The notes below the pieces were generated by a model. The model ran no database searches, had not been told where the DNA came from, and saw only the letters and a list, made by a program, of their open reading frames with translations. Shown piece by piece: positions 10,306-27,210 of a stretch of DNA of 46,041 nt. Origin of the DNA: a virus; UHGV virus genome UHGV-1457062. One strand, written 5' to 3'. The position numbers and the translations under genes were made by a program. Position 1 is the stretch's first letter; the number at the start of each line of letters is the position of its first letter.

Positions 10306-10962
10306 TTATTTCACTTCTCCGTCATACGTCGGAAGGGTGTCTTTAGTGGTGCTGGCTGTTCCTGCATTGGTTGGCACTTGGCTTTTTACCTGTCCGCCTG
10401 TGCTCTTAGGTGATGCGGTCTTTACAGCAATAGCGTTAGTAGTTGCATAACTCACTAATCTTATCTGTTCGAACTGCAAATCAAACTGTAAAGCTGATTC
10501 TGTTTTATATTCGTAGTCAATGCCTGTCAGAATCATATTATCAAACGTCTTATGCTCTGTGCTTACAATAATAGGCTGTCTGGCATTCATTATTTCATCA
10601 AGATAAGCAATAGCCTGTGAACACCTGTTACCGTTCACCCCTGCACTTGATAGCATATCACCACGTAATGCTAATGGTGTTTCTGTAATAATGCCTGAAA
10701 GCATAAGTTTATTATTCTTGATCCTGACATTATCAGATACATCATTACCATCCTGCACAGGATACGATGTAACATCGGCAGAACGTGAAACCTTAGTTGC
10801 CGGAACAGCGTCAAAAGTAATAGCTTTATAACTGGCTATCGTTGATGCATTCTCGTTATTCAGGTTGCTACATATAATGGCAAATCCGTTATCAGATTTA
10901 ACCTTGCTGTTAGATGTATTAATGTTAGATGTGCTGTTGATCTGACTTTCTTTGATAGCCAT
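10306..10962 (-). CDS. hypothetical protein (218 aa), Ser/Thr/Asn-rich
   Basis: Long ORF last in a co-directional block; no recognised motif. Confidence 0.55.
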   Translation of the reverse strand: MAIKESQINSTSNINTSNSKVKSDNGFAIICSNLNNENASTIASYKAITFDAVPATKVSRSADVTSYPVQDGNDVSDNVRIKNNKLMLSGIITETPLALRGDMLSSAGVNGNRCSQAIAYLDEIMNARQPIIVSTEHKTFDNMILTGIDYEYKTESALQFDLQFEQIRLVSYATTNAIAVKTASPKSTGGQVKSQVPTNAGTASTTKDTLPTYDGEVK

Positions 10963-11035
10963 TTATATTAATCCTTGTGTAATGAGCGGAAAGCAATAAA
11001 TATTGCCCCCGCTTTATTATTAGTTATCGTTAAAC

Positions 11036-12937
11036 TTAGTTAACGCTACTCTGTCCTGACAACGTGCTAAGAATCAGATTCGAACTAAACTGATTGTTGT
11101 TCGCTCTGATCTCAGTGCGGATTAAATCCTGAAAGCCGGGACCGTTAGGGATGACGTTAACAGAGATCATATCACTCGGCACCGTAACCTGTGCATTCAC
11201 GTTAACAGGGGTTGCGTATTGACGTTGTAGGCTTACAGTCGGCTGATAGGCTTCTGCTTTACGTGCAACAAGGGTTGATCCGTAGCTGTTAGCATTGCCA
11301 TTAATTAAATCAGTCCACCACCCTGGAACGCCGGACTGTGTTTCCTCACCGCGCACAATACGCCCTACATCTTTCGTATCGAGTCCAGTTGCATAACGAA
11401 TACCTTCATTGATAATCGTTGATGGCGACCATTCCCCATCTGTAACAGCGTCCATAACCTTTTGTGTCTCAGGTCGGTTATCATTCTCACCACGGCTAAG
11501 ATGTTTATTAATCCAGCTTGTGATTTGATTCCCGTAAGAAGTCATAGAGGTCAGTAATATAGCGCCTTGTTTAGCCAAATCCCCGAACGATGCACCAACA
11601 CCATAAGCTGCATTCTGTAAGGCTTTGCTTTCTTCCGGTTTGAGTGCTGGCATGTTGGCTATGCCATCAAAGAAGCCCAAAATAGCCTGATTCGATAGTC
11701 CATCTGTCAGACGGTCAAAGGCTGTAGCTGTCTTGTTAGCTGCGCGATATTGCTCTTTCTGTGCTTCTGTCAGTAGCTGCCCGTTGTTTTCCATATCAAC
11801 CATCGTTTTACGGAACTCTTCCCCATCACGGGAAAACATCTTGAGATAATGGCTGGCATCGTCTGCTAATGGTTCGATCAGGGATATGATGGCTTCTTTA
11901 GTCATTCCTCGGCGTTCACCTTCTCTCACCACGTCTTGCAAGAGTTGCAGCGGTCGCCCCTGGTAGGAAGCTATCTTATCTTTGTTCCATGCAAAGGCAT
12001 TCTGAATATCATTTAATGATCCTTCCCCGCCTCGCCACTCTTTTTTCTTACTATCCCATTCAGCAGTTCGGCTTTGATGACCAATGCGTTCGTTTAAGTC
12101 TTTGATATTATCAGTGGTCTTGTCCGCGCTTGCACTTGATACACCGTTTGCCCTCCCCCAATTAACCATTGCAGCCACCTGATTGCTATCGGCACCTACC
12201 AGATCGCTCATCTTCTGCAATTCCATACGTTCACGGGCTTTTTCCATTCCAGCGGATACAGCCATACTTCCTAAGCCAACGGCAGCGCCGCCGATAATGC
12301 CACCAACACCGCCCATCATTAACGCGCCACCGCCGCTAACACCTTCTTTGTGGAGCTTCTTAGAAGTAACTGGATATACCCCCCCAGCGGCAGCATTACG
12401 ACGCGTAGCAGCGGCTGCGGCTCGTCTTTCTAATGTGATGCGGTCACGGATCAGGGCATTCATCTTCGCTTGCGATATAGCGCCGGATTCATAGAGGCGG
12501 GTTTGTTCCTTAATGTAACGTAGAGCATCGTGATATTTCTTAATATCCATCCCTTCGCCATAGCGGGAATTGTTCTTGATGCCTTGTAACTGGCGATATG
12601 ATGCAAGGCGCTTGATCTCTGCCTTTTCAGCAATTGAGGCTCGTTTAGCCTGTGCTTTAGCGAGGTTTTTAGCTTCCTGTAGCTTCTGTTTAGTGCTGGC
12701 TTTAGATGCCTGTGTCTCAGATTTAACAGCCTGCTTAACATGCTGATCATGCTGGCGCTGAATCTCTTTTCCCAGCCTCTGTAAATCTTTCTGACGTGCT
12801 GCCGCCACTTGCACAGGTTTGATCCCCTGCATCTTCTTTTGTAGCTTATCCACTTCATTCTTAGCTTTCTGTAAGCTCTTGAAATCAGTGGTAAATGTCA
12901 CAACATTACTAATTCGTGAGGCGCTAATTTCTAACAT
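11036..12937 (-). CDS. hypothetical 633-aa protein: basic coiled-coil N-terminus, Gly-zipper hydrophobic segment, large C-terminal domain (tape-measure/pilot-like architecture)
   Basis: Heptad-like K/Q/A-rich N-terminus, GGALMMGGVGGIIGGAAVGLGSMAVSAG segment, no P-loop or catalytic motif recognised. Confidence 0.7.
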   Translation of the reverse strand: MLEISASRISNVVTFTTDFKSLQKAKNEVDKLQKKMQGIKPVQVAAARQKDLQRLGKEIQRQHDQHVKQAVKSETQASKASTKQKLQEAKNLAKAQAKRASIAEKAEIKRLASYRQLQGIKNNSRYGEGMDIKKYHDALRYIKEQTRLYESGAISQAKMNALIRDRITLERRAAAAATRRNAAAGGVYPVTSKKLHKEGVSGGGALMMGGVGGIIGGAAVGLGSMAVSAGMEKARERMELQKMSDLVGADSNQVAAMVNWGRANGVSSASADKTTDNIKDLNERIGHQSRTAEWDSKKKEWRGGEGSLNDIQNAFAWNKDKIASYQGRPLQLLQDVVREGERRGMTKEAIISLIEPLADDASHYLKMFSRDGEEFRKTMVDMENNGQLLTEAQKEQYRAANKTATAFDRLTDGLSNQAILGFFDGIANMPALKPEESKALQNAAYGVGASFGDLAKQGAILLTSMTSYGNQITSWINKHLSRGENDNRPETQKVMDAVTDGEWSPSTIINEGIRYATGLDTKDVGRIVRGEETQSGVPGWWTDLINGNANSYGSTLVARKAEAYQPTVSLQRQYATPVNVNAQVTVPSDMISVNVIPNGPGFQDLIRTEIRANNNQFSSNLILSTLSGQSSVN

Positions 12938-12971
12938 GCTAATTGTTTCCCTGTATTATGATTGTTGTTTG

Positions 12972-13169
12972 TTATTGTTTTTTAGAACAGTAGTATGTAA
13001 TTGCTTCAAAAGTGCTGCACCCAGTCTGAAACACACGCTGCCGCACATTATTTGCATCAATTGAAAGCATTCTGCATAAGGCACTGACATTGATTATTGA
13101 GTCATCGCTAATAGCTGCCAGTTCTTTTACAGACTTAAGAATTAATGCCTGTGAATTTTCTGTGTTCAT
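12972..13169 (-). CDS. hypothetical small protein (65 aa)
   Basis: Short ORF in the gap between the 343-aa and 633-aa genes, same strand. Confidence 0.3.
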   Translation of the reverse strand: MNTENSQALILKSVKELAAISDDSIINVSALCRMLSIDANNVRQRVFQTGCSTFEAITYYCSKKQ

Positions 13170-13322
13170 TGGTTTTCTCTCACATATATATTTTTATTTG
13201 GGTTTGTAGACAGTAGAAAAACAAAAAAGGCAAAGAGATTCGTTACTGTATTTGCGCCTACAGGTTAGGTAATCCCTTTACCCTTATTTTCCAGACGATG
13301 GGAATCGTCTATTAATGCTTTA

Positions 13323-14354
13323 TTACGCAGCAGATCCGAAGATGATAGCTTGCGGAATGTTGTTTACTGGCAGATAAGATGTCTCAGTAACCACAGATGG
13401 GAATTGGAATTCATCCTTGATTAGATATTGGTGATGCAACACGGCATCTTGACCTAACTCAGCATGACGCACACCAACGCCTGTGTGAAGCTGGTAACAC
13501 TGTACCGATTTATCCATTACCGGGACAATTGCGAAACCGTTCTCTCCGATGTGAGCAACAATCTCAGGAAACATTGACACATCAATAACAGTGATCCCAC
13601 CAATCTGGAAAGAGTCATAGGCTGGGTTAGAATCAACCATACGGGTAAACAGGGCCGTAGCACTCGCATCACCTGCATATTTCACCATGTCACTGATCAG
13701 CGGGTTAGATGACAAACCATCAGCAGCAGCGCCAGCAGCAAAGATAATTACACCAGTTCGCTTTGCAGCAAGACCAGACCCCAGCTTTTCACTCTGTAAG
13801 CGCACCGCTTTACGAATAGCAAGGAACGGGTTAACAGTAGTCGATGCAAAGTCGATAGCGGGTACCGTGGTTTTAGCCTGACCGTCGAGGAAGTCGAGAT
13901 CACCTTGTCCGGCATATTCAGATTCAACTTTCAGTCCCAGCAGCGCGGTAATCAGATCCACTTCAACACGGTTTGCGTGTGAACGGTAATGAGCCTCAGA
14001 GAAATCATTAACCGCTACCAGCATAGCATCAGAACGGTTTGGATATTGGCGGCTGTATTGTTCCAGGTCACGAGAAGTAACAGCGTTAATACTGCCGACG
14101 TGTTTCATCTGGAAAAGTTTGTTTGACCATTCCTGACGTTTAGAGGCGTTCCAGTCGCTTTGAGCGTAAGGCGAGGTTTCCCCAGCTACCTGCACAAACT
14201 GATCGATCAGGTCGGTAAGAAGAATGCTGTTTTCTGTATGATATTGCACATCGAACAGATCGAGATTAGTAATCAGGGTATTAAGTGCATTCTCATAAGC
14301 AAAAGGAGTTACTACCGCAGTATTAACGCCAAAATATGTTGATAAATCATTCAT
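13323..14354 (-). CDS. hypothetical protein (343 aa)
   Basis: Long ORF in co-directional block; no nucleotide-binding motif; function unknown (structural role is only a guess). Confidence 0.65.
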   Translation of the reverse strand: MNDLSTYFGVNTAVVTPFAYENALNTLITNLDLFDVQYHTENSILLTDLIDQFVQVAGETSPYAQSDWNASKRQEWSNKLFQMKHVGSINAVTSRDLEQYSRQYPNRSDAMLVAVNDFSEAHYRSHANRVEVDLITALLGLKVESEYAGQGDLDFLDGQAKTTVPAIDFASTTVNPFLAIRKAVRLQSEKLGSGLAAKRTGVIIFAAGAAADGLSSNPLISDMVKYAGDASATALFTRMVDSNPAYDSFQIGGITVIDVSMFPEIVAHIGENGFAIVPVMDKSVQCYQLHTGVGVRHAELGQDAVLHHQYLIKDEFQFPSVVTETSYLPVNNIPQAIIFGSAA

Positions 14355-14368
14355 TATTATTTTCCTTG

Positions 14369-14752
14369 TTAAGTCGTAGGGATCGCAAGTTCTTCATAAC
14401 CAGCAATTACAAAGCCGAGAGATTGCAGTTTTGCAATAACACTTGCCTTTTCCATGCTGTTAAATTCAATCCCATCTTCAGCCAGAATAACGAAAGTAGG
14501 ATGTGCAACCACTACGCTTTCCTGTCCTTCATAAGCCGGTTCAACTACTACGTGAGCAATATCAGATGCAGTTGTTGCTTTGGTGCCATCGGCTTTCAGC
14601 AAAGCCCCGACAATAAGATCGTCAGTGAGAGGTGAAGCCAGTTTGACGAGGCGATCTTGCAGCACTGGATCAGCAGCGTAAGCTACTACCTTACAGCGTG
14701 AACGGGAATTATCCGCATTCACTGCTTTTAATTTTCCATATGGGTTAGCCAT
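14369..14752 (-). CDS. hypothetical protein (127 aa)
   Basis: ORF 15 bp upstream of the 343-aa gene, same strand. Confidence 0.55.
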   Translation of the reverse strand: MANPYGKLKAVNADNSRSRCKVVAYAADPVLQDRLVKLASPLTDDLIVGALLKADGTKATTASDIAHVVVEPAYEGQESVVVAHPTFVILAEDGIEFNSMEKASVIAKLQSLGFVIAGYEELAIPTT

Positions 14753-14756
14753 AAGA

Positions 14757-14954
14757 TTATTTTCCTTTCAGTTGTTTAATTTTAGATTTAAGGGCATCAG
14801 CAAGACTAACCGCATCAGCCGATTTAAATAATTGGGCAGTGGTAGAACGAAGACTTTCGGGAGTAACTCCCAACAGTGCGGCAACCTTAATGAGGTTTTC
14901 ATCACTAACAATCATCGTTTCCCCGTCTTTGCTGATAATCATTTCTTGTTTCAT
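14757..14954 (-). CDS. hypothetical small protein (65 aa), basic C-terminus
   Basis: ORF track 14757-14996; internal ATG at 14954 (MKQEMIISKDG...) has an AGGAA RBS. Confidence 0.45.
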   Translation of the reverse strand: MKQEMIISKDGETMIVSDENLIKVAALLGVTPESLRSTTAQLFKSADAVSLADALKSKIKQLKGK

Positions 14955-15135
14955 AAATAACGTTCCTGTTAGTGCCAGACAAATAAAAAGCCCCAATGCC
15001 GTAAGAGGTTAATTCTGACCAGCAAAGGGGCTTTAACGTGCGGGCAATTACATAATTGATAAGTTAAACTATAAGAGGATTAAACATATCAGCAAATACA
15101 CTTTTTAAATATACTTGATGATATGCTTAAAGGAT

Positions 15136-15200
15136 GAATATCAGATCTTAGAAGGAAGGCTCTTAGGAGTTGCCCCTGGAATCACTAAGATCTGATATTC
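15136..15200. repeat. perfect 16-bp inverted repeat (gaatatcagatcttag / ctaagatctgatattc) with 33-bp spacer
   Basis: Read directly from sequence inside a ~950-bp ORF-free gap (15000-15948). Confidence 0.8.
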
Positions 15201-15948
15201 TGGATGCGGTGGCTAACCGCTGCCTGTTTTTGCTGTGGATGCAACAAAGTAAGGCTTTAAGGAATCACTATTCCAATTCTCATCTACTCACAGATTAAAT
15301 TTTAATAGGATTAACTACACCAACAATAATCTACCGTTTCAGAAAAAGCGTTTTTACAACCAAAGATTATAGATTTGCAGTCTATAAAACCCGTTTTGCT
15401 ATCAATATTTCCAAAGGTTATTGCACAATTCTTAGCTAAACTCTCTCTGCTTGCGGCTAACGCTATGCAGATGATTGTTTTTGACAACAACTTAATAGAT
15501 TATTCTGTTACTAACTTCCGTCATTAAATAAGAGTTTAATGATGTTAGTAAATAGTTATAAAATATAACTATCAGTGTAAGGCTCTTTAATGTTTTCGGA
15601 CAAAATAAGGAGCTTTAGGATAAGCATAGATGAAAAATAAAAGCGGGAAGGGCAAGGAGATAACACCTACCCGCTTTTATCAAAATTAAGCACAATGCCT
15701 AACAACATTCATCAACACAACGTAGAAACAATCAACAATCAAAGAGGGAGTTATGATTATTCTAAAACTTCTTGAGGGGATGGAAGGTAATATTTGTTAG
15801 AGGTTAATGCCACTCAACCTTTGAGGCTATCACCTTCCATATGCAGGGATTTATGACAGTAGAAGGATTAACACCAGTCAAAACCTTTTTATCTATCCCT
15901 AATATTATTATATAATGAAATCGTTATAAATGCAAATAATTTTCATTA

Positions 15949-16257
15949 TCATTTAGAGAAAATAGCACTTTTTGCTAAATCATCTACTAATTGCTGAATC
16001 TCTTCACTTGCAGCCTTTAACGTGCTGGCGGTGTCTGTGATGGTTTGAGTGCACATCTTGGCATCGTCCTCAATTAGCTCTAAATCGCTCACCAGAGAGA
16101 TAAAATCGTCAAGGCTTACATTCACCTTCATTAAGCTAATAACGCATTGAGAGAGCGTGTAATCGCATAAATCTGAATAGGCTTGATTTATTCTTGTTTG
16201 TAGTGAGATAGTCAGATCTAAAAGTTGTTCCATTGCATTGCTAATATCTTCTTCCAT
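15949..16257 (-). CDS. hypothetical acidic protein (102 aa), translationally coupled to rep
   Basis: Start ATG overlaps rep stop (TAATG); about 22% Asp+Glu. Confidence 0.55.
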   Translation of the reverse strand: MEEDISNAMEQLLDLTISLQTRINQAYSDLCDYTLSQCVISLMKVNVSLDDFISLVSDLELIEDDAKMCTQTITDTASTLKAASEEIQQLVDDLAKSAIFSK

Positions 16258-16817
16258 TATGCGGCTTCTCCTTGTAATGCATCATTAATCATATTCAATA
16301 CGATGTTAAAAGGTGTCTTGAGCGTCAGCACTTCATCACGATAACGCTCTAATGCTTCGTAGTCTTCTGTTTCTTCGTGCGGTGGTTTCTTCTTATCAAG
16401 GGAAAGAAGCCAAGTAAAAATTTCGGGCCGCTCAGGGAACTCTGATTCCTGTATTTCTTCTTCAACGATGATTTCTGAAACATTCAATATTTCATTAGAT
16501 TCGTTTTCTTTCTCAGAAGGATCAGGTAGTGATGATTCTCCTTTTGGAATATCAAGCACTCGATAAAGGTTAGAGCTTCCTGGTCGTGCATCTTTTATAA
16601 TTAATCCCATTTCGAGCAATTTCTTAACCCTTTCTTCTGCTGCTCTTGGTGTTATGCCAAAAACATCGCCTATCTTAGCGTAAGAGGGAAATGCACGATC
16701 AAACCCTCTCAAATAGCAGTAAAGGTTTTTAGCACTATCTGTAAATTTATGCCCGTTTACTTGGCTTATTTTTAGAATCCACATAGGAACTTTTACAAAT
16801 TGTTCTTCATTAATCAT
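16257..16817 (-). CDS. putative replication initiator (winged-helix Rep-like)
   Basis: ORF track 16257-16841 (GTG); ATG at 16817 with AAGGAGA RBS; HTH-like region ...KIGDVFGITPRAAEERVKKLLEMGLI...; iterons nearby. Confidence 0.5.
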   Translation of the reverse strand: MINEEQFVKVPMWILKISQVNGHKFTDSAKNLYCYLRGFDRAFPSYAKIGDVFGITPRAAEERVKKLLEMGLIIKDARPGSSNLYRVLDIPKGESSLPDPSEKENESNEILNVSEIIVEEEIQESEFPERPEIFTWLLSLDKKKPPHEETEDYEALERYRDEVLTLKTPFNIVLNMINDALQGEAA

Positions 16818-16870
16818 TAAAAATCTCCTTGATGTAATCACGCTCTACGGCGCTACTATGGTGATAAAAA

Positions 16871-17041
16871 TCACTTGCTTTTGTTTGAGAGTGTTTCAGC
16901 CTCTCTTTTCAACATATCAAGAATGTAATCTGTAACAGTGATACGTTTACTTCTGGCTTCTTTAAACAACACCTGAAATACTTCATCAGGAATATGAAAG
17001 CAAGTGCGTGGTTGTCTTTTCTTTTCTGTAGTTTCGCTCAT
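16871..17041 (-). CDS. ribbon-helix-helix (Arc/CopG-like) small regulator, 56 aa
   Basis: Manually translated MSETTEKKRQPRTCFHIPDEVFQVLFKEARSKRITVTDYILDMLKREAETLSNKSK; strong AGAAGGAG RBS; below the ORF-track size cut-off. Confidence 0.45.
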   Translation of the reverse strand: MSETTEKKRQPRTCFHIPDEVFQVLFKEARSKRITVTDYILDMLKREAETLSNKSK

Positions 17042-17062
17042 AGTTTTCTCCTTCTCCTGTTA

Positions 17063-17245
17063 TTATTCTTTCTCTGCTTCTGCCTTACGCAGTTCATCAA
17101 TAATTTTTAGTGCGTCGTCAAAGCATTTTTCACGCTCTGGGTAGCCACGGCGACGGGCTGTATTACGATTCTGGCGAACCTGGTAGCGGGTCATCTCACC
17201 AGCGAGATACGCAGAAACAATGTCATTTGGTGTAAACCATTTCAT
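17063..17245 (-). CDS. hypothetical small basic protein (60 aa)
   Basis: ORF at head of the RHH-rep operon. Confidence 0.4.
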   Translation of the reverse strand: MKWFTPNDIVSAYLAGEMTRYQVRQNRNTARRRGYPEREKCFDDALKIIDELRKAEAEKE

Positions 17246-17859
17246 TTTTGTAATTCCTTATTCAAATAAAAGAAAAACACACCTTGCAGCCTGACGGCTC
17301 AAAGTGCAGTGTATTGTGATTTGATTATTTAGATGGGGGAGATGCTTTTCTTACCCCTCACATTTACTTTACTACATATGGAGGCTTTTGTCAACCCCCT
17401 TTCATAAAAAATACGATCTTTTTCAATTTCTTATAATTTTTCTTATCTTTTTGTGCTATCTTATCTGGTACAATTCTCCACTATTGTCTAAAACGCTCTC
17501 AATCGCATTCTGACGAGGTTTTGATAAAAACAAGACATTCCCTTATGTAGAGGCTATTTATCTCGTCAGAGGCTTGTTTAAGGGGCTTATTTTGTATTTG
17601 TTAGATGATGGAAAGATGATGATAGATAAACTCTGATTTCAAACACCTTATAAAATACCTGCAAAGCTCTCAGAAGCTCTATAACGAGCTAATCTATTAC
17701 CGCTAAGTGTTTCCCTACCTTATATACGTTTAGCTCGCCTACGGCTTGATTTAAGCGGTAGAAACTTATTTAACCTTCAACTACTAAAACCATTCTTTCT
17801 TTTTTGTTTGTTGTTGGTTGTTGTCTGTGTGCTAACATCGCTAACGCGTAGCACACAAG

Positions 17860-18240
17860 GTTATTGCACTCGTCAGAGTATTGCACAATAGATTTTCTCT
17901 TAAATAGATTGATGATCGTTAGATTGGCGTAAGCCTCATCAATGGAACTATTGAAGCGCACAGCGCATAGACACTAACAACCATTCGCTTACGCTCAGGT
18001 TATTGCACAAGTAAATTTCAATCGTTAGATGGTAGTTAGTTAATTATCGTTCTGCGCACAGCGCAAGACTATTTAGCCTTACGCAAGCCGTAGGCTATTT
18101 GCACATAGTAGATTACATATTCGTTGTGAGCGGCATTAGCGAACATAGATCTACTAACTAACATCAACAAACAAAAAACTATGTGTTATGACAAGCAGTC
18201 TAACGACTAACACTCTAACTTGTGCAAGGTTCTGGCGAAT
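17860..18240. repeat. degenerate direct repeats (recurring TTATTGCACA, ATCGTTAGAT, GCGCACAGCGCA, CTTACGC motifs)
   Basis: Motif sets recur 2-3 times in the same order within the ORF-poor region 17250-19000. Confidence 0.5.
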
Positions 18241-18359
18241 GCCAATAGATTAAGGGATAGTCGAAGACTCCCTAACGGGTATCCCTTAATTATTCTTTAA
18301 AGATAAAAGAATTTATAAAAGATAATTTAATTGTAGTTTGATAGTTGATCTAATAGGTA

Positions 18360-18500
18360 ACAAAATTCTGTAGGGGTGGCTAACAGTTTTCTGTGGGGGT
18401 GTCTAACATAATTCTGTTAGGGTTGGGGTAACAGTTTTCTGTTAGGGTGCATATTTCTTTAAAAGTTAAGGATAACAGAATTCTGTGGGGGTAGTTCACA
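18360..18500. promoter_or_regulatory. iteron array (5 x ~22-bp TTCTGTnGGGGT-type repeats), candidate replication origin
   Basis: aattctgtaggggtggctaac / agttttctgtgggggtgtctaac / aattctgttagggttggggtaac / agttttctgttagggtg / aattctgtgggggtagttcac in tandem. Confidence 0.6.
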
Positions 18501-19010
18501 GTGACCTACCGTTACATCCATTTATCACATAACATCTGTGCAATGATCTTCTAAAAGTGTTTCTTGCTACCAAAATTAAACATCTAAAACAGGCTTAAAT
18601 TCAATGTAATTGATGATTAATCCCTGTGTAATTCCTACGTAAAAATTCAATGAAAAGTAGCTTAAAAGTGCAATGTTAGCTTTCTTCACTTTTACATCAC
18701 TTTCGCTGTGCCTTGTGTAATGCGGCATATAGCGCATCACTGCAAAATTGTTGCTCAATAAACGTTCTATCATTTGTCGAACAAGTTTCTTTAATGCAAC
18801 AAAAAATTATTTTTTCAAAATAAACACACTATTTAATAGCTTGCTAATTTTACCAAAACGTAACTACATGATTCTCATGCAAGACGTGTAGTGATAAAGC
18901 AGGCTAAATCACCACACTAAAAACCTTCGAATTTCGTAGTGAAAAAAGTCCTTTACACACCTAATCAACACGATCAATAATCACTACACACAAATCAACA
19001 CAGAAGGAAA

Positions 19011-19568
19011 ATGAAAATGGCTAATATTGGATACATTAGGGTATCGACTGTCCAACAAAACACAGACCGTCAATTAGCTGGAGTAACTCTTGATAAAGTC
19101 TTTGAAGATAAAGCGTCAGGCAAGAATACCCAGCGCCCACAGTTTGAGGCAATGATGAACTATGTGCGTGAAGGTGATGTTTTGCATGTTCACAGCATTG
19201 ATCGACTTTGCCGTAATACAGCCGACCTACTGGCAACGGTTGAGCAATTAACAGAGCGCGGCGTGTCTGTGCATTTCCATAAAGAAGACTTTAAGACAGG
19301 GAAGAACTCTCCCGCAGGGAATATGATGCTCACAGTGCTTGCAGCAGTGGCACAAATGGAACGTGAAATGATGCTTGAGCGGCAGCGTGAGGGGATCGCC
19401 GCAGCTAAGGCCGCTGGACGTATAGCAAAACGTGGTAATGGAAAAGCAATTGATCGAGCGGGAATTGTTGCCGCTCTCGCGAATGGTGGATCAATTCGGA
19501 GCGTAGCAAAAGATTTCAGTGTCAGCACACAGACGGTGCAACGTATCAAGAAAGAGCAGGAAGCGTAA
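19011..19568 (+). CDS. serine recombinase (resolvase/invertase family)
   Basis: N-terminal IGYIRVSTVQQNTDRQ catalytic motif, C-terminal HTH; about 185 aa; alternative start at 19017. Confidence 0.85.
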   Translation: MKMANIGYIRVSTVQQNTDRQLAGVTLDKVFEDKASGKNTQRPQFEAMMNYVREGDVLHVHSIDRLCRNTADLLATVEQLTERGVSVHFHKEDFKTGKNSPAGNMMLTVLAAVAQMEREMMLERQREGIAAAKAAGRIAKRGNGKAIDRAGIVAALANGGSIRSVAKDFSVSTQTVQRIKKEQEA

Positions 19569-19908
19569 TGCCTCCTGATATTTGAGAATTGTCGCTGCGT
19601 GGACCTGACGCCGCTGATCTTCGCGTTAAACATTGATCACGTCTGCGCCGATTTCAGAGAAAAAGACAGTAACTGAACTCACTATGAAGGCTAAACGTAT
19701 CTTTACACTTGATGAAAACGTTCAAAAAACAACCTAACCCCAAAATTCAACAAATTGCAACACATTGTTTTTAAAAGAAAATTAAATCTACATCAAATAT
19801 TGGTTGACGTAGATTGAGGTGAATAGTAGACTATTAGGGTAAATTACCACCCTTGTAACATCATTTAATGCATGTTCTAATCTTCCTATCGTAAAACCGG
19901 AGGAAGTT

Positions 19909-20067
19909 ATGCATTTACTTTCAAAACATCTTCACACTATTCACTTTCTCGTTATTGATGTATTCGTTGTGGCTATTAGTTACCGCATTTGCATCGCTTC
20001 CAGTGAAGAGATGGACGCTGTTGCAATTATTGCTCAAGCAATGGCGATGTTAACTAAACGACTTTAA
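19909..20067 (+). CDS. hypothetical 52-aa hydrophobic peptide
   Basis: Manually found ORF with GGAGGAAG RBS and upstream TTGACG/TAGACT promoter-like hexamers; single predicted TM helix. Confidence 0.25.
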   Translation: MHLLSKHLHTIHFLVIDVFVVAISYRICIASSEEMDAVAIIAQAMAMLTKRL

Positions 20068-20888
20068 TAATTTCACTATCAGGTGCATAAACACATCTTT
20101 GATCGCTGGATGTGTTATGCGCCTACTGGTGATTCAATCCTTAAGCCATTTCAACTCACTAAGGAGTTTTCTTTCTTCGTTCTCTCGCTGTTTACGCTCT
20201 AGCCAGGCTTTTCCTTCTGGCGTAGACAGGAACTTACGAGCGTGAATCTTGCGGTTATTACGTTTGATAGCTGCAATGTTTTTCATCGTGTGCCTCTGTA
20301 TTCATATGAAAATTAACAAGTTACATACTACACAGGAAGGCTACGCATAAAACACAATACAAGTAAAGATACATTTTCAAGACAATAGGAGCCATAAAGC
20401 GCCTTTGATGGTTATACCAAAAAATAAGCGCCGTAGGCGTATCCACTAAAAAGGGCTTTTTCACAAAAGCTATGAAGTCTTAGCAGTTCTTCTCTTATCA
20501 GGCACCCGTTGTACTCCGGTGGACGAAACCGTGCTAGAGCTTGATTCTTTCCCGATCAAGTTAGGTTTTGAAGAGGTGGGCTTTAATCCACTATGCACTT
20601 AAAACTCTTCCCATCATTTAGCCTGTTTATCCTCTGCAACGTCTCACGACGTGTAGCATCATTGGACACCGCGCCAGGTGTGGAACATCTTGCTAAGAGT
20701 TTTGGTAGAAGGTTTAGAGACGGTGGCACGTCTTCCAGCTTCAAAGGAACTTGTTACGAGGTTGAGCCTGTGAACTACTCGCCCATACGTGTTACACTAC
20801 CAAAGCCCATAACAACGTATAGGCGTTTGTAAGTGATAACAGAAGATACAATTTCTTAGAGAAGTTAAGCTAAGTTATTGATTTTCTT

Positions 20889-20936
20889 AATGGTGCCGAT
20901 AATAGGAGTCGAACCTACGACCTTCGCATTACGAAT
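20889..20936 (-). repeat. 46-48-nt copy of thrW tRNA-Thr(CGU) 3' portion (anticodon loop to CCA); P22-type att core, not a complete tRNA
   Basis: Reverse complement reads ATTCGTAATGCGAAGGTCGTAGGTTCGACTCCTATTATCGGCACCA; 5' half of the tRNA absent (sequence diverges at 20937). Confidence 0.7.
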
Positions 20937-21146: not shown

Positions 21147-21332
21147 ATGGAGGCTTGGATGTTAAACTTCATGACTTTGATTACTTGGTTGCATCACGAA
21201 ACTATTGAAGTGCAACTGGCACATGCCAACGGCGGATCTGTGCGCGGTATTTACAACCATGCTCAGTATCTCGATAAGCGCAGGGAGATGATGCAGTGGT
21301 GGGCGGACTGGATTGATGAAAAGGTGGAGTAA
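21147..21332 (+). pseudogene. C-terminal fragment of a P4-type integrase
   Basis: ...VQLAHANGGSVRGIYNHAQYLDKRREMMQWWADWIDEKVE matches the conserved P4-type C-terminus; no upstream catalytic domain. Confidence 0.6.
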
Positions 21333-21464: not shown

Positions 21465-23453
21465 TTACTTTCCAAGTAACTCCTCTATTTTCTCAATACG
21501 CATAGCTAACTCTTTTTGTTTCTCCAACAAACGAGAGTAGTTACGTCGTTGTAATGCAGCCTCGAGAGACAATGCCTCCTCATAACGAATTCCGTATCTT
21601 TCACCAGCTGGTGTATCAAGAACCTTTTTAAATTTTGCAGGGGCAGGTTCAGTATATTCTTCTGTATTTCCACCGCTCGTTTCTCTTGTTTTTTTTACCA
21701 CCTCCCCTATATTTGTCTGCACATCAACGTAAACGTCATCCCATGAGTCATAACATAGCAAGCCAAGCTTAAATCCATCTATTCCATGTGATGAAAAAAC
21801 TTTTTCAACACGCTGCGCAATCAGTCCAAAGTGCCATCTCGCACCATCTTCTCCTTTTATCGCTATTGCGTCATCAAATTTAAACCATGTCCCCCAGTCT
21901 ACTTCTGACCACGCGTCAAGAATATATTCTGGTATTTTTTCTTTGATGGGTTTATGGCGAGAGTCAGATGTATTAATTGACCCGGTACCAAAATACGCTG
22001 TTCTTCCTCTTTTGGAAGCTGTTCCATAATCATAGGTGTTGTCAAGAGATGGTCTAATGCCAGACCCCATGACTATTTCTGTTTTTGAGTTAAGTTGAAT
22101 GATTGAAGAATTAAATCCAATAGTCCCATCACCAGAATCTTCAGAACCACCAGAACAGAAAATCCTTCCATCGTTATCAACATTATTTCCGCTTGAGTGA
22201 AAGTCAATATATGAAACACCGGAATCTGTTGTACTACCAAGTTCAATAGATGAGCCAACAGATGCGATATTCAATTTACTATTTTGTAAAGTAACGTCAC
22301 CTGACATCAATATCATTGATGAGCATTTTGGTATCTCGAATCCTGATGTTATGGATGGCACATCTGTAAATGCAACAAGTATTTTACTATCTCCTGCTAG
22401 GGCGTGCCCCCCATTCATGTTGCCTATGCGAATAGCGTTTTTCCAGCGAACGGTTGAAGTAGAAAGGTTTGATAAGGCAATACCAGTATCTACAGCAGTA
22501 CCTCGAACATCACCACCACCGACAATCTGAATACCTGATCGATACCATACAGATGAACCTACTAACGCGGAAACATTAAACTCACATCCTGTAACGTTAT
22601 AAACTCCAACCGCAGCAGAATCCAGGCGTCCATACATATTTCCGCCAAAATATGCTCCTTTGAATGTACCAGGTGATGATGATATCGTTCCACCATCACC
22701 ATTTTGTGAAACCGCAAGACCAACAACACCAACATAATTTCTATCAGGATTTTCTAAGTTTGTGGCTGCTTCGTGAGTTAAAACAAACTCTCCGGCGTGT
22801 CTGCCGCCTTTTGCTTCTTGATATCCGAAATTATGGTGAACTAAAAACCCGTCAACTTTTGTTCCTGCCGATTGGTCATCAACAGCATTAATTCTGTCAT
22901 CATTAATCATGATATAGTTTATTTTAGCTGTGCTTGCATTAGGAACAGAACCAACAATTGAATCATTAATAATGATACCAATACCGTATGTAAGACCATC
23001 ATTTAAATACTCTGATGTCCTGCCCTGCATTATTGAAAACTTATCATTACCTCTAGATATAACTCCTGCGCCAACTAATCCGGCACCACCATTAATAGAT
23101 AGTTCGGTTCTTAACTGATCAGGATCATACTTCAGAACATTAGGAAAATAGAACTGCTGCGCCCCATAAGCATCATAAACAGCCATAGAATGGCCTTGCA
23201 CAGTTACGAACTTGGCAATCTGTCCGTTATATACCGGATAACCAGCAGCGTTAATGATGATTGGTTGCGAAACAGGAACGTGAGAGCCGTCTTCGTTCTC
23301 CACATAAACATGAATCTGGTTTTCAGGATTTACCGGGTCAGTGTCAATTTTACCGATATAAATTTTGCCATTGGCAACCGCTTTAAAAGAACGCGCCATA
23401 GTGAAGAGTTGCGAAGGCATGCTTACCACAACATTGGCTGTAATGTCTGTCAT
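21465..23453 (-). CDS. tailspike protein: P22 gp9-type head-binding N-terminus, divergent receptor-binding body, C-terminal S74-type intramolecular chaperone domain
   Basis: [43 protein letters not shown]... matches P22 gp9 N-terminus; C-terminus has [12 protein letters not shown] and [14 protein letters not shown] motifs. Confidence 0.85.
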
Positions 23454-23585
23454 TTAATTTGCTCCAGATACAAGGAATCGCCGCAGCATGGCTACGGTGA
23501 GTATTTGTTACATACCGAAACGGTACGATTGTTGATTTGTACAGTAGGTTTTACGATGCCATTCCACCCATTTGGTGAGGCATTG

Positions 23586-23843
23586 ATGATGTACAGCAAA
23601 TACGATGAGGCGCAGTTCCACTTGAGGCTTACGCACGAGTTGCACGCTAAGATTAAGCAGCGTGCAAAAATGAATAACAGGTCTATCAATTCCGAAATTG
23701 TGGCTACGATGGAAGAATCACTCTCCAAACCATCACCTGTAAGCGGGTATCGTGATGAAGAAGAGAGGCTGGCCTCATTAATCTCGGAACGAGTAAAAGA
23801 AGTTGCGGCTGATATCCTTAGAAAAGAAAAAACCCGCGATTAA
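23586..23843 (+). CDS. mnt: Mnt-like ribbon-helix-helix repressor (immI)
   Basis: NNRSINSEIVATMEESLSKPSPVSGYRDEEERLA matches P22 Mnt; GGTGAGG RBS before ATG at 23586. Confidence 0.75.
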   Translation: MMYSKYDEAQFHLRLTHELHAKIKQRAKMNNRSINSEIVATMEESLSKPSPVSGYRDEEERLASLISERVKEVAADILRKEKTRD

Positions 23844-23857
23844 GCGGGTTTAGTTGG

Positions 23858-24079
23858 TTAGTTATCAAAAAGTCCGTACGTTTCTTCTTCTTCAGGTGTA
23901 AGGGGAAGAATCTCTACTCTATCTATAGATACCTTTTCAATGTACCCATGAGGTCTACTTAAAATTAAAGCTCTCTCATGCCACAGAACTCCAAGAATGT
24001 GATACCTTCCAGCATCGCCTTTTACCCTGGCTCGTCCTTTGATTCTTGGCGGCATAATGCCATATTTTTTCTTTGCCAT
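23858..24079 (-). CDS. hypothetical protein (73 aa)
   Basis: ORF immediately downstream of the antirepressor genes. Confidence 0.4.
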   Translation of the reverse strand: MAKKKYGIMPPRIKGRARVKGDAGRYHILGVLWHERALILSRPHGYIEKVSIDRVEILPLTPEEEETYGLFDN

Positions 24080-24804
24080 TATGCAACATTACTCCCATGA
24101 ATCAGGTGTTGTAGTGCTTTAACACCTTCCGCATTGTAGCGGAATGCTTCCACCTGTTTGCTGGAATGCGCAGATTTATCCAGGAAGAACTTACCGTACT
24201 GCTCAGTTTTGAGGTTGTTTGCGTTAGCAATGCGACCAATCTTGTTGGCCGTTACTCCAAGCTGCTCTGCAACCTCCCCTGCTGAGTAGTAATGCTCTTC
24301 TATTGCTGGAAGAGGTATTGCATTAAAACCAACGATCGGGTTGATTATGCTTGCTGCCGCAGTCTGCTTTGCTTCCGGCGCAAGATTTGGCATCAAATCG
24401 AACAGATTGGTAACAGCTTCAACCGTCATTTTCAGTGTTCGCGCTTGACGATACTCAACAAGTCCACTCGCTGATTTACCGCTTTTAATGTGTGCTTCCT
24501 GCATACTTTCAAGTTTGTCTACAAGTGTTCGGCGAACTGCTTTAGATTCTCGAGCAGCAACACGAAGCGCCTGCTTGATAGTCATGGAGATAACATCAAT
24601 GTCAGCCCCGTTTTTCCGACCTACACTTTTTGTGTAGGTCTCGCCCTCCAATTCATCCTCAATTTTCTCGATGAATTTGTTGTTACGTACTGATGGCTCT
24701 CCACATAACTTGCGAGCTTCATTAACCATCATCAGAAGACTTTGGCTGTCAATGGTTTTATCCGTGACAACGGATCCGATGTTTGCTACATTCTTCAAAG
24801 TCAT
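24079..24804 (-). CDS. antirepressor-like protein (Rha/ORF6N-like N-terminus, KilA-C-like C-terminus)
   Basis: ORF 24079-24855 with internal ATG at 24804 and AGGAA RBS; ...SLLMMVNEARKLCGEPSVRNNKFIEKIE... pattern. Confidence 0.55.
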   Translation of the reverse strand: MTLKNVANIGSVVTDKTIDSQSLLMMVNEARKLCGEPSVRNNKFIEKIEDELEGETYTKSVGRKNGADIDVISMTIKQALRVAARESKAVRRTLVDKLESMQEAHIKSGKSASGLVEYRQARTLKMTVEAVTNLFDLMPNLAPEAKQTAAASIINPIVGFNAIPLPAIEEHYYSAGEVAEQLGVTANKIGRIANANNLKTEQYGKFFLDKSAHSSKQVEAFRYNAEGVKALQHLIHGSNVA

Positions 24805-24892
24805 TAGGCATTCCTTATGTGGTAGTAAGGGTGTGACATAGGCCGCCAGCAGCACACTGGCGGTTTTCTTTTTGCGTCGTCCGGCGCACCAA

Positions 24893-25519
24893 TCAATGAA
24901 TCCATTCCTCGCCGCGCAGTTTTGCCAGCATTGGCTGAGCGTTCTTTACGACAAAATTGTTGGTATCAAGATTCTTCATTTCACGAAGAAGTGATTTCTT
25001 GGTTTCTTCTGACATGTAGCGAGTCTCATATGCAATATCGTAAATCCTTCCTGAAAGCTCAGAACCAATTTGCTTCATTCCTGGGTAGATGTGTTTGCAC
25101 ATTTGTTGGCTCTTCTCCATCCACAATTGTAAGTAGCAGAGATTAACCAGTTCTTCGTCAGTAAACTGTTTTGCAATCGGTGAGCATTCTGCCTGCCGAT
25201 CCAAAATATCCAGCACCCAGCGGCGGAACTCTTTTGCTACAGGAGTGCGAGCAAACATCGCGATTAGGTGGGCACCGCGTAGTGAGAAAACTCGCACTTT
25301 TTTGCGATAATTTCCTGAGGTACTCACTTCGAGTACCTGAGTCATTCCGGCGCTAAACTCATCGCTATACTTGTTATAAATCATTGTTACTGCACGACTA
25401 TTTGCGTATTTAAGTGCAGATGCAATATTAGATGATGTGAACCAAACACCATGCATATCACGGGTGGGGACCAACTCAACTCCGTGGAAGTTGTAATCTG
25501 ATTTTGCTACAATATTCAT
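24893..25519 (-). CDS. ant: antirepressor Ant-like (Bro-N domain)
   Basis: FHGVELVPTRDMHGVWFTSSNIASAL... Bro-N signature; ATG at 25519 with AAGGAA RBS; downstream of arc as in P22. Confidence 0.7.
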   Translation of the reverse strand: MNIVAKSDYNFHGVELVPTRDMHGVWFTSSNIASALKYANSRAVTMIYNKYSDEFSAGMTQVLEVSTSGNYRKKVRVFSLRGAHLIAMFARTPVAKEFRRWVLDILDRQAECSPIAKQFTDEELVNLCYLQLWMEKSQQMCKHIYPGMKQIGSELSGRIYDIAYETRYMSEETKKSLLREMKNLDTNNFVVKNAQPMLAKLRGEEWIH

Positions 25520-25592
25520 GTTAGTTTCCTTGCATACGGTTACTGACATAGAGGCCCGGTTTGTGTTCGCGCACTGCCGGGCTTCACTATTT

Positions 25593-25766
25593 TTATTGGA
25601 TGACAACATCGCCCTTTGCCTCAAGTTTCATCAATAACTCCATTCGATAAGCTATCTCTGCCTGAATTGACCTATGGCATCTTTTTGCTGATTCGCGGAT
25701 ATGTGAATCAACCTTTTCTGTAAAACGAACCTGACGCGGCTTGATGGAAGATATCTTTTCAGTCAT
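25593..25766 (-). CDS. arc: Arc-like ribbon-helix-helix repressor (57 aa)
   Basis: Manually translated MTEKISSIKPRQVRFTEKVDSHIRESAKRCHRSIQAEIAYRME...; position upstream of ant matches P22 arc; below ORF-track cut-off. Confidence 0.5.
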   Translation of the reverse strand: MTEKISSIKPRQVRFTEKVDSHIRESAKRCHRSIQAEIAYRMELLMKLEAKGDVVIQ

Positions 25767-25865
25767 TATGCACTCCTGTTTTTAAAAAACTCATAATCTC
25801 ACTTTTTGTAGTTTGATTATTCACTCACACTCAGTATGAGTCAATGAATTTTTTATGGTGAACTA

Positions 25866-26507
25866 ATGAATTTTGACGATCAATTCCCATCAAGAGTATC
25901 TCTGGCAAGACAGTCCAGGGGTATGACGCAGGCGCAGTTGTCAAAATTAGCTGGTGTTGTTCAACGTCAAATAGCTGCATACGAGGGTGGTGAAGCTAAA
26001 CCACGGCTTCGGGTATTGCAGGCATTAGCCAACGCATTAGGTACTACGGCTGAGTGGTTAGCTCTAGGTGAAGGTCAGGGTCCGGGAACAAAAAACGTCA
26101 TGCCTGACGTTCTGGTAAAGCAAATACCAATCCTCAAACTAGATGAAGTTATGCATTACCTAAACACAGGTGAACACTCATCGTCTAGATTTCATCCGGC
26201 AATATACAATGTTGGTGACTCTGCATTTGCATTGACTATTGAAGGTGAAGCTATGACTACAAGTTCAGGTATTAGCTTTCCCAGAGGATCGGTTGTCACG
26301 TTCAGCCCTCTAGTAAAAGCTAAAAGCAAAGATTATGTAATAGCATCATTGGATAAAGAGCAAATATTGAGCTTCAAACAGGTTTACATTGGTGAAATAG
26401 AGACAAACCTAGTATCCCTAAACCCAATGTATCCTAATATTCTTGTTAGAAATGAAGATGTTAGTATTTTGGCAACCGCAGTTTACCTTGAAATCCCGTT
26501 GCTTTGA
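25866..26507 (+). CDS. lambda CI-like repressor (XRE HTH + S24 LexA-like domain) with Ser->Ala at the nucleophile position and no Ala-Gly cleavage site
   Basis: C-terminal VGDSAFALTIEGEAMTT...SFKQV...LNPMYPNILV parallels lambda CI ASDSAFWLEVEGNSMTA...FTFKKL...LNPQYPMIP; GEAM in place of GNSM. Confidence 0.8.
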   Translation: MNFDDQFPSRVSLARQSRGMTQAQLSKLAGVVQRQIAAYEGGEAKPRLRVLQALANALGTTAEWLALGEGQGPGTKNVMPDVLVKQIPILKLDEVMHYLNTGEHSSSRFHPAIYNVGDSAFALTIEGEAMTTSSGISFPRGSVVTFSPLVKAKSKDYVIASLDKEQILSFKQVYIGEIETNLVSLNPMYPNILVRNEDVSILATAVYLEIPLL

Positions 26508-26571
26508 TATCCTTTGGGAAGCGACACATTATCATCTGATATCCTGCGCAAAACTAAGGAGTGGCTACTCA

Positions 26572-27210
26572 ATGAAAAAAATAGATATATATAGCGATAC
26601 ATCAACCTATGTCATAGGATCATTAGGTTTTTTAATTTTTTTTGTTTGGCAGTACCAGTCACTATCTCCAGGGTGGAGATTTTTGGGGATGTCTTTGATA
26701 TCACTTGGTGCAGGAATAGCAACGCAGGTGTTGATGTATCTCTTTAATGGATGGCTCTCAAAAAGAGTTGAGAAAAAAAGAGCTGCTTCAATATGTAGAA
26801 GCCTAGCCATTCCAGAAGACTCTACAGATCAGGATGATATTGCAAAATGTTGGCGGTATATGATTGCAAGATACTCAAATGAGTTACTGGCAAACAGACT
26901 GTCCGACTTAATCGGGATCGTAGTTACCTCTGTTGGAACAATCATCAGTATAGGGATATCAATTTGGTATGTCGGGATGATTGTCTATTTTGTTTGGAAT
27001 AGAGACTTCAATGAACCTTTCCTTCTTTTTATACCTTTATTTTTCAGGATATTAGCATTCATATGTGAGTTATTGCTCTCTTTTTTCTGCAATGTTTTGT
27101 TCAACAGATACCCTGGTGAAGCAAGAAAGTTTAATAAAAACTATGATGAGTTAAGGAGAATAGATCCTTTTCTATCAAGTAAAGAGTTCCGCGATTCCAT
27201 TCGCAATTAA
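26572..27210 (+). CDS. AT-rich multi-pass membrane protein at the sieA locus (candidate superinfection-exclusion moron)
   Basis: ORF 26443-27210; ATG at 26572 with AAGGAG RBS; at least four hydrophobic helices; low GC. Confidence 0.6.
   Translation: MKKIDIYSDTSTYVIGSLGFLIFFVWQYQSLSPGWRFLGMSLISLGAGIATQVLMYLFNGWLSKRVEKKRAASICRSLAIPEDSTDQDDIAKCWRYMIARYSNELLANRLSDLIGIVVTSVGTIISIGISIWYVGMIVYFVWNRDFNEPFLLFIPLFFRILAFICELLLSFFCNVLFNRYPGEARKFNKNYDELRRIDPFLSSKEFRDSIRN

Follow-up and report, generated by a model that had tools for sequence, protein, structure and literature searches.

What does a phage tailspike recognize when its two ends are familiar and the part between them is not? This question is raised by a gene in the virus genome UHGV-1457062, a stretch of 46,041 nucleotides that we analyzed as a whole and refer to as the window. 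A 662-aa open reading frame (ORF), running from ATG to stop on the minus strand, fills positions 21465..23453 exactly, and a GGAG ribosome-binding site (Shine-Dalgarno) lies 9 nt 5' of its ATG. An earlier interpretation made from the DNA letters alone (the sequence-only reading) described the product as a chimeric tailspike with a P22-type head-binding domain, a receptor-binding body and a C-terminal S74-type chaperone. Our analysis indicates that the gene probably encodes the functional tailspike, i.e., the receptor-binding protein (RBP), of a P22-like (Lederbergvirus-type) prophage that an O4 extraintestinal-pathogenic E. coli carries in thrW, and that this tailspike consists of three exchangeable modules. 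Its architecture is already known: the layout is that of CUS-3 with a different body, and the protein is present in databases under a generic tailspike name (WP_097732007.1, "phage tailspike protein" of E. coli, identical in sequence and belonging to a 90%-identity cluster with 121 members). The unfamiliar part is the body, which represents an unclassified family and is a candidate for O4 specificity.

Modular layout and prophage location

The Pfam model Head_binding (PF09008) matches residues 1-113 along its entire length (profile positions 1-113 of 113, E 9.9e-67), in agreement with the assignment of the first ~110 residues to a P22 gp9-type head-binding domain. The domain is indeed P22-type, but it is closer to its counterparts in E. 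coli and Shigella P22-like phages (CUS-3, Sf6) than to that of P22: identity is 97% to the CUS-3 tailspike over residues 1-115, ~88% (counted from the alignment) to the Sf6 gp14 structure 7sg7 over residues 1-119 (E 6.6e-65) and ~75% to the P22 gp9 structures 8tvr, 2xc1, and 1lkt over residues 1-117 (E 1e-50 to 5e-45). DNA relatives were found for the first ~342 nt of the gene only; they are present in 1,133 of 5,426 complete E. coli genomes at 90-96% identity, and the same segment is shared with HK620, CUS-3, Sf6, and others at 88-96% DNA identity. Three breakpoints mark the junction between this module and the body: DNA similarity to other P22-like phages ends at nt ~342-345 (codon 114-115), protein identity to CUS-3 ends after residue 115, and similarity to the spike of phage EcoPhCCP1 and to other body homologs with different adaptors begins at residue 114. 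The window also encodes a P22-type tail machine, comprising P22_portal, P22_Tail-4 (gp4), and Phage_stabilise (gp10) as defined in Pfam, together with an Sf6-type needle knob (Phage_tail_NK), gp7, and gp20.

The C-terminal end of the protein is equally recognizable. The S74 domain comprises the last 167 residues, directly after the stalk, and Peptidase_S74 (PF13884) matches residues 496-557 (E 1.8e-10; 41.4 bits versus a cut-off of 22). The motifs that the sequence-only reading had cited as an auto-cleaving chaperone signature are found at residues 496-507 and 540-553 and align with S74 domains, and the Ser/Lys dyad is in register with solved homologs, so this assignment stands. Residues 422-644 match the chaperone of the K1F endosialidase (3gw6, E 5e-21), residues 496-593 match the released fragment of phi29 gp12 (3gud, E 2e-16), and T5 pb1 (4uw8) matches too (E 8e-11); in phmmer searches, the latter appears among weaker chaperone matches together with Klebsiella Kp7 gp51 (7y5s) and Acinetobacter AS12 gp42 (6eu4). 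The E-values at both ends of the protein lie well outside what chance would give. Homology to the K1F, phi29, and T5 proteins extends across the whole chaperone domain, which in each case is C-terminal and follows a trimeric stalk, whereas the passenger upstream of the chaperone in the window protein differs from theirs. The 3gud chain opens with SDERHK exactly opposite S496-DSRH-K501. At the first dyad position, 3gw6 has Ala across from Ser496, presumably because it is the S911A mutant, which does not cleave; its Lys, five residues further on, matches Lys501. Ser496, Asp497, and Lys501 are kept in 22-24 of 26 homologs, and the dyad in 22. Between the body and the chaperone, residues 422-495 align with the pre-chaperone stalk of K1F endoNF (3gw6) and of tailspike 9vvr, and PF12219 gives a weak Pfam match at residues 448-495. 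The stalk, which is made of beta strands, is the most confident part of both AlphaFold2 (AF2) models described below (predicted local distance difference test [pLDDT] score, 85-95).

With high confidence, we infer that the precursor trimerizes with the help of its C-terminal domain, autocleaves at Ser496, and docks on the gp4/gp10 tail hub via residues 1-113, as in P22, Sf6, and CUS-3. In the mechanism that we propose, the S74 chaperone (residues 496-662) would nucleate trimerization of the stalk and body and would then cut itself off between Thr495 and Ser496 by means of the Ser496-Lys501 dyad; the products predicted from the sequence are a mature subunit of 495 residues (52.1 kDa) and a released chaperone of 167 residues (19.2 kDa). 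Residues ~114-413 would constitute the host-recognition body, with the short stalk (414-495) next to it.

The description of this protein as chimeric is accurate in that it is modular, but the three-part layout has been characterized experimentally in CUS-3, and thus being chimeric is the normal state of such tailspikes. The CUS-3 endosialidase tailspike (siaK1, ABQ88383.1), which is also encoded by a P22-like E. coli prophage, has the same Head_binding domain at 1-113, an exchangeable body, and a stalk followed by Peptidase_S74; its stalk and chaperone are 32% identical to those of the window protein over 235 residues, and the junctions of the two proteins coincide, after …DPDQLR. The difference lies in the body: CUS-3 (981 aa) has a K1 endosialidase body with a beta-propeller (PF12217), a beta-barrel, and a PF12219 stalk, whereas the window protein lacks these body domains and shows only a weak tail-end PF12219 signal. 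An endosialidase body was considered and rejected, as both the PF12217 beta-propeller and the PF12195 beta-barrel are absent from the window protein, with CUS-3 positive in the same scan. P22 gp9, Sf6 gp14, and HK620 gp9 share with the window the head-binding domain, the position of the gene at the prophage end after immI, and the P22-type tail machine; O-antigen is the likely receptor class common to these endoglycosidase tailspikes and the window spike. In the P22, Sf6, and HK620 spikes, the body is a right-handed beta-helix formed by a single chain, and these spikes are not known to have a cleavable chaperone. In contrast, the window body shows no beta-helix signal, and the S74 chaperone is present.

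The prophage location could be read from the chromosomal side. Prophage-free E. coli genomes contain the flank at 14000-20936 with 100% identity, and the match to prophage-free O4 genomes stops at 20936, inside an annotated tRNA-Thr beside proA; this is thrW, the classical site of P22. The tRNA fragment ends with TGGTGCC…, the reverse complement of the CCA end, and ARAGORN detected no whole tRNA in the window. Since only the 3' 46 nt of thrW are within the window, the complete copy of thrW must be at the other prophage end, outside it. The tailspike gene is the last complete prophage gene at the thrW end; an integrase-like fragment (21147-21332) lies directly downstream of it. The identical 662-aa protein is encoded on at least 23 contigs, gut metagenomes included, and these contigs show two different P22-like immI/gp16 backbones.

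The central body, its family, and its fold

The body (residues ~114-413) has no match in Pfam, PHROGs v4, or NCBIfam, and PDB sequences searched with a profile of the body gave chance matches only (pyruvate dehydrogenase E1, E 0.17-0.34). Nor is it a copy of a characterized tailspike, which would have undermined the sequence-only reading. Its closest relative from an isolated phage is the tail spike of the Kagunavirus-like siphophage EcoPhCCP1 (XHQ01510.1), which is 59% identical over residues 114-630 and 69% identical over the body and is itself uncharacterized. The order of body, stalk, and chaperone is the same in both proteins, but the EcoPhCCP1 spike, carried by a siphovirus, has a different N-terminal adaptor (PF18668, CBA120-type), and its chaperone fell below the Pfam S74 threshold in our scan. 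EcoPhCCP1 plates on 4 of 41 isolates from urinary tract infections (PMC12919940).

A word-index search for homologs identified only 28 clusters, all of which contain body and stalk, usually with S74, and carry PF09008, PF18668, or no recognized adaptor. Establishing the size of the family needed an exhaustive HMMER search, which identified 2,112 representatives at E<=1e-3, 1,450 at E<=1e-10, and 313 at E<=1e-30; each representative is a cluster at 50% identity, and the family has at least 2,112 of them. The N-terminal adaptors among the members that we scanned include P22, CBA120-type, and T7 tail-fiber ones. The family is nearly absent among 50,697 cultured phage genomes, where the matches are EcoPhCCP1, four Pseudomonas syringae phages (31%), Stappia phage SI01, and fragments elsewhere, and a narrow-pattern scan of genome contigs gave three loci, in Sphingomonas, Allorhizobium, and Pseudomonas luteola. 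Nothing was found on Solidus gp83 in the searched literature. We also observed a truncated tailspike of 203 aa (P0031, on a 5.2-Mb NCBI contig) that consists of the head-binding domain and ~90 body residues, 100% identical to the window protein; some tailspike copies are thus decaying. In two long homologs, P0069 (1,282 aa) and P0076 (1,557 aa), the body module is located far downstream of a canonical pectate-lyase-type beta-helix (PF12708/PF13229). These proteins may be spikes with two specificities; alternatively, the module may be a binding or stalk unit there. The PF12708 matches in some homologs were considered as a clue to the nature of the body and ruled out, because they are upstream of the module and not inside it.

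An alignment of 99 diverse members, whose sequences share only ~30-50% identity, revealed seven invariant positions (K199, G217, R218, D237, G255, E291, and D322) and further near-invariant ones (D186, H219, T231, R238, Y240, D253, and N293), all of which fall inside the core comprising residues 186-350. The first AF2 model, based on the 28-sequence alignment, was unusable (pLDDT 50), and the second, based on the 99-sequence alignment, reached a pLDDT of 80.3 and a predicted template modeling score (pTM) of 0.61 as a monomer. In the second model, DSSP assigned essentially no strands to model residues 49-268 (protein residues 162-381; pLDDT ~67-87), and the stalk (protein residues ~384-463) is beta-structured and very confident. 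A monomer chain devoid of intrachain sheets is expected from an intertwined-trimer fold, and the weak top fold matches are intertwined phage fibers, namely the endoNF stalk, K5A lyase, HylP hyaluronidases, and T5 pb1. Judging by this model, the body probably folds only as an intertwined trimer and not as a P22-style single-chain beta-helix. Triple-helix depolymerase domains often rely on intramolecular chaperones, as noted in the DepoScope paper (PMC11326577). The HylP hyaluronate lyases of streptococcal phages, which are elongated intertwined trimers, serve as a works-like comparison only: their structures (2yvv/2dp5) are weak Foldseek matches (E 2.9-6.5, TM score ~0.2, 226-253 aligned columns), sequence and structure show no significant similarity to the window body, and their lyase mechanism needs uronic acid, which the O4 gene cluster apparently does not provide.

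On the other hand, the body could be a right-handed parallel beta-helix depolymerase of the ordinary kind, too divergent for hidden Markov models (HMMs) and mis-modeled by AlphaFold. We consider this quite unlikely. A single-chain right-handed beta-helix would give many strong fold matches, and neither an HMM match nor a beta-helix fold of the PF12708/PF13229 type was found in the body; this judgment depends on the monomer model, whose confidence is moderate.

The host serogroup and the nature of the receptor

The serogroup of a prophage host is an established guide to the specificity of its RBP, and exchange of serogroup-specific RBPs is known for Lederberg- and Kagunaviruses (PMC10408124). 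In that survey of serogroup-specific E. coli RBPs, none is assigned to O4 (PMC10408124), and no E. coli O4-specific tailspike or RBP was found in the literature that we searched. Among the matches listed, all 12 genomes with a thrW-side flank 100% identical to that of the window carry full-length O4 wzy. Only one complete E. coli genome carries the tailspike gene (99.5% identity in the body), and it is also O4, with the prophage at the ybhB/bio locus and not at thrW. This is the site that the tailspike prophage occupies in the O4 dog isolate NZ_CP098187.1. Thus, both informative lysogen lineages (2/2) are O4, versus a background of 0.66% (full-length O4 wzy in 36 of 5,426 complete E. coli genomes). 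A third flank (contig L012) is a mobile island common to many serotypes, and 4 of its 25 top matches are O4. The fact that both lysogen lineages are O4, with prophages at different att sites, suggests the O4 O-antigen as the receptor. We put the chance that the body recognizes the O4 O-antigen of the host lipopolysaccharide (LPS) at about even, and the chance that it also cleaves this O-antigen at even or slightly below. The statement of the sequence-only reading that the body defines polysaccharide specificity is something that we, too, can only infer, for a body unlike known depolymerase folds.

If the body is an enzyme at all, its chemistry can be narrowed down. The O4 gene cluster encodes the dTDP-L-rhamnose and UDP-L-FucNAc pathways and no uronic-acid step of its own; together with the sugar composition, which we assume in part from the known O4 structure, this indicates an O4 unit apparently without uronic acid, and cleavage would thus be hydrolytic rather than by beta-elimination. 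A lyase was considered and set aside for the same reason, beta-elimination being unlikely if O4 is the substrate.

Several points weigh against an O4-specific enzyme with an intertwined fold. The fold is derived from an AF2 model of the monomer whose confidence is moderate (pTM 0.61), and hydrophobicity and glycine in the conserved core showed no clear solenoid period by autocorrelation (maximum ~0.14), a result that neither supports nor refutes an intertwined fold. S74 is present downstream of the body in only 64 of the 172 family members examined; therefore, the body is not strictly dependent on this chaperone. The domain order in P0069 and P0076 is as compatible with binding or a stalk function as with enzymatic activity, and the charged residues among the invariant positions may have a structural and not a catalytic role. 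Finally, the O4 association comes from two lysogen lineages, which may reflect shared ancestry or capsule type.

These points bear on what else the body might be. It may be a non-enzymatic adhesin that binds glycans reversibly without cleaving them, as the T5 L-shaped fiber protein pb1 does; T5 pb1 has the chaperone in common with the window protein and is one of the weak fold matches, the body matched no glycosidase or lyase family, many family members are fiber-like, with T7 tail-fiber or gp34-type domains, and in P0069 and P0076 the enzyme could be the separate canonical beta-helix upstream of the module. Still, seven positions that stay invariant in 99 sequences with presumably different ligands form a pattern expected of shared chemistry more than of ligand binding, and the short-tailed P22-like virions must cross the O-antigen layer, usually enzymatically, so that we see the adhesin as rather unlikely, if a serious contender. 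Less probable is a spike that targets a capsular (K) polysaccharide of extraintestinal-pathogenic E. coli instead of the O4 O-antigen: P22-like temperate phages mostly use O-antigen, as established for P22, Sf6, and HK620, and the association measured here is with O4 wzy. Decay of the gene in a defective prophage, with no functional spike produced, seems very improbable. The truncated P0031 and the integrase-like fragment just downstream of the gene would fit such decay, but the ORF is intact and has a ribosome-binding site, its domain boundaries and catalytic residues are all kept, the same sequence recurs unchanged on the contigs counted above, and a complete P22-type morphogenesis gene set adjoins the tailspike gene.

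Taken at its boldest, the interpretation of the body as an O4-directed enzyme would make it a structurally new receptor-binding/depolymerase class: an intertwined trimer, neither beta-helix nor beta-propeller, with a conserved K199/R218/H219/D237/Y240/E291/D322 site. Such a class would be abundant in uncultured phages and in prophages of Proteobacteria and, as a large unannotated family with no structural match, invisible to Pfam and PHROGs; the window protein would be its founding experimentally tractable member and the first E. coli O4-antigen glycosidase. We regard this full combination as doubtful, and as a distinctly weaker bet than O4 recognition itself.

Genomic neighborhood and significance

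The coordinates of the features discussed are collected in Table 1.

Table 1. Features of the tailspike gene and its surroundings in the window
Feature	Position	Strand	Basis or remarks
Complete tailspike gene	21465..23453	-	662 aa + stop; 71.3 kDa precursor
P22-type head-binding (tail-hub docking) domain, residues 1-113	23115..23453	-	PF09008, Sf6/P22 structure matches
Module junction, residues 114-120 (…YDPDQ/LRTELSI…)	23094..23114	-	Similarity breakpoints
Central body, putatively receptor-recognizing, residues 114-413	22215..23114	-	Unnamed family
Conserved core of body, residues 186-350	22404-22898	-	99-member alignment
Pre-chaperone stalk, residues 414-495	21969..22214	-	AF2 strands; 3gw6 and 9vvr alignments
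C-terminal intramolecular chaperone (Peptidase_S74), residues 496-662	21468..21968	-	PF13884; structure alignments
Ser496…Lys501 (SDSRHK), predicted autoprotease catalytic dyad	21951..21968	-	3gw6, 3gud alignments
Intrinsic-terminator-like hairpin, upstream of tailspike gene	23830..23851	-	8-bp stem, 5 GC pairs, then T-run
3' 46 nt of tRNA-Thr (thrW), prophage/chromosome junction	20891..20936	-	Breakpoint versus prophage-free O4 genomes

Upstream of the tailspike gene is an immI-like region (23556-27210) with an Arc/Mnt-type gene on the opposite strand, a SieA-like gene, a Bro-N/P22_AR_C antirepressor (24893-25624), and a LexA-like repressor with helix-turn-helix (HTH) and Peptidase_S24 domains (25866-26507); the terminator-like hairpin is positioned between the tailspike gene and the genes of this region. 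The second backbone that carries the identical tailspike has the classical Mnt/Arc/Ant set instead. In NZ_CP098187.1 (L001), an InsQ/TnpB RNA-guided endonuclease gene (23108-24238) adjoins the tailspike-carrying P22-like prophage.

On the chromosomal side, the plus strand encodes a 1,376-aa serine-protease autotransporter (3084-7214; Peptidase_S6, Autotransporter, ESPR) and a MarR-family regulator (7340-7864), which together look like a vat/vatX-type virulence island near thrW, typical of extraintestinal-pathogenic E. coli. The next segment (8867-16841) is an island that could be a satellite or a defense island. It encodes a 454-aa tyrosine integrase (8867-10231) and a Dit-like phage tail protein (10306-10962), and several sizeable ORFs in it gave no Pfam match (11036-12937, encoding 633 aa; 13323-14354; 14369-14752; and 16257-16841). 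A serine recombinase/invertase gene (19011-19568, plus strand; Resolvase and HTH) is located between this island and thrW and is kept in O4 genomes and in most tailspike-carrying contigs.

O4 is a common serogroup of uropathogenic E. coli and of canine and avian extraintestinal strains. If the spike is O4-specific, it would be usable for typing, phage engineering, and enzymatic stripping of the O-antigen. The body family may escape current depolymerase predictors, whose training covered beta-helix, beta-propeller, and "triple-helix" folds. The window protein is a convenient experimental entry point to this family of more than 2,000 sequence clusters, which have neither annotation nor structure, and one structure of this readily expressed protein together with an activity assay would annotate the whole family.

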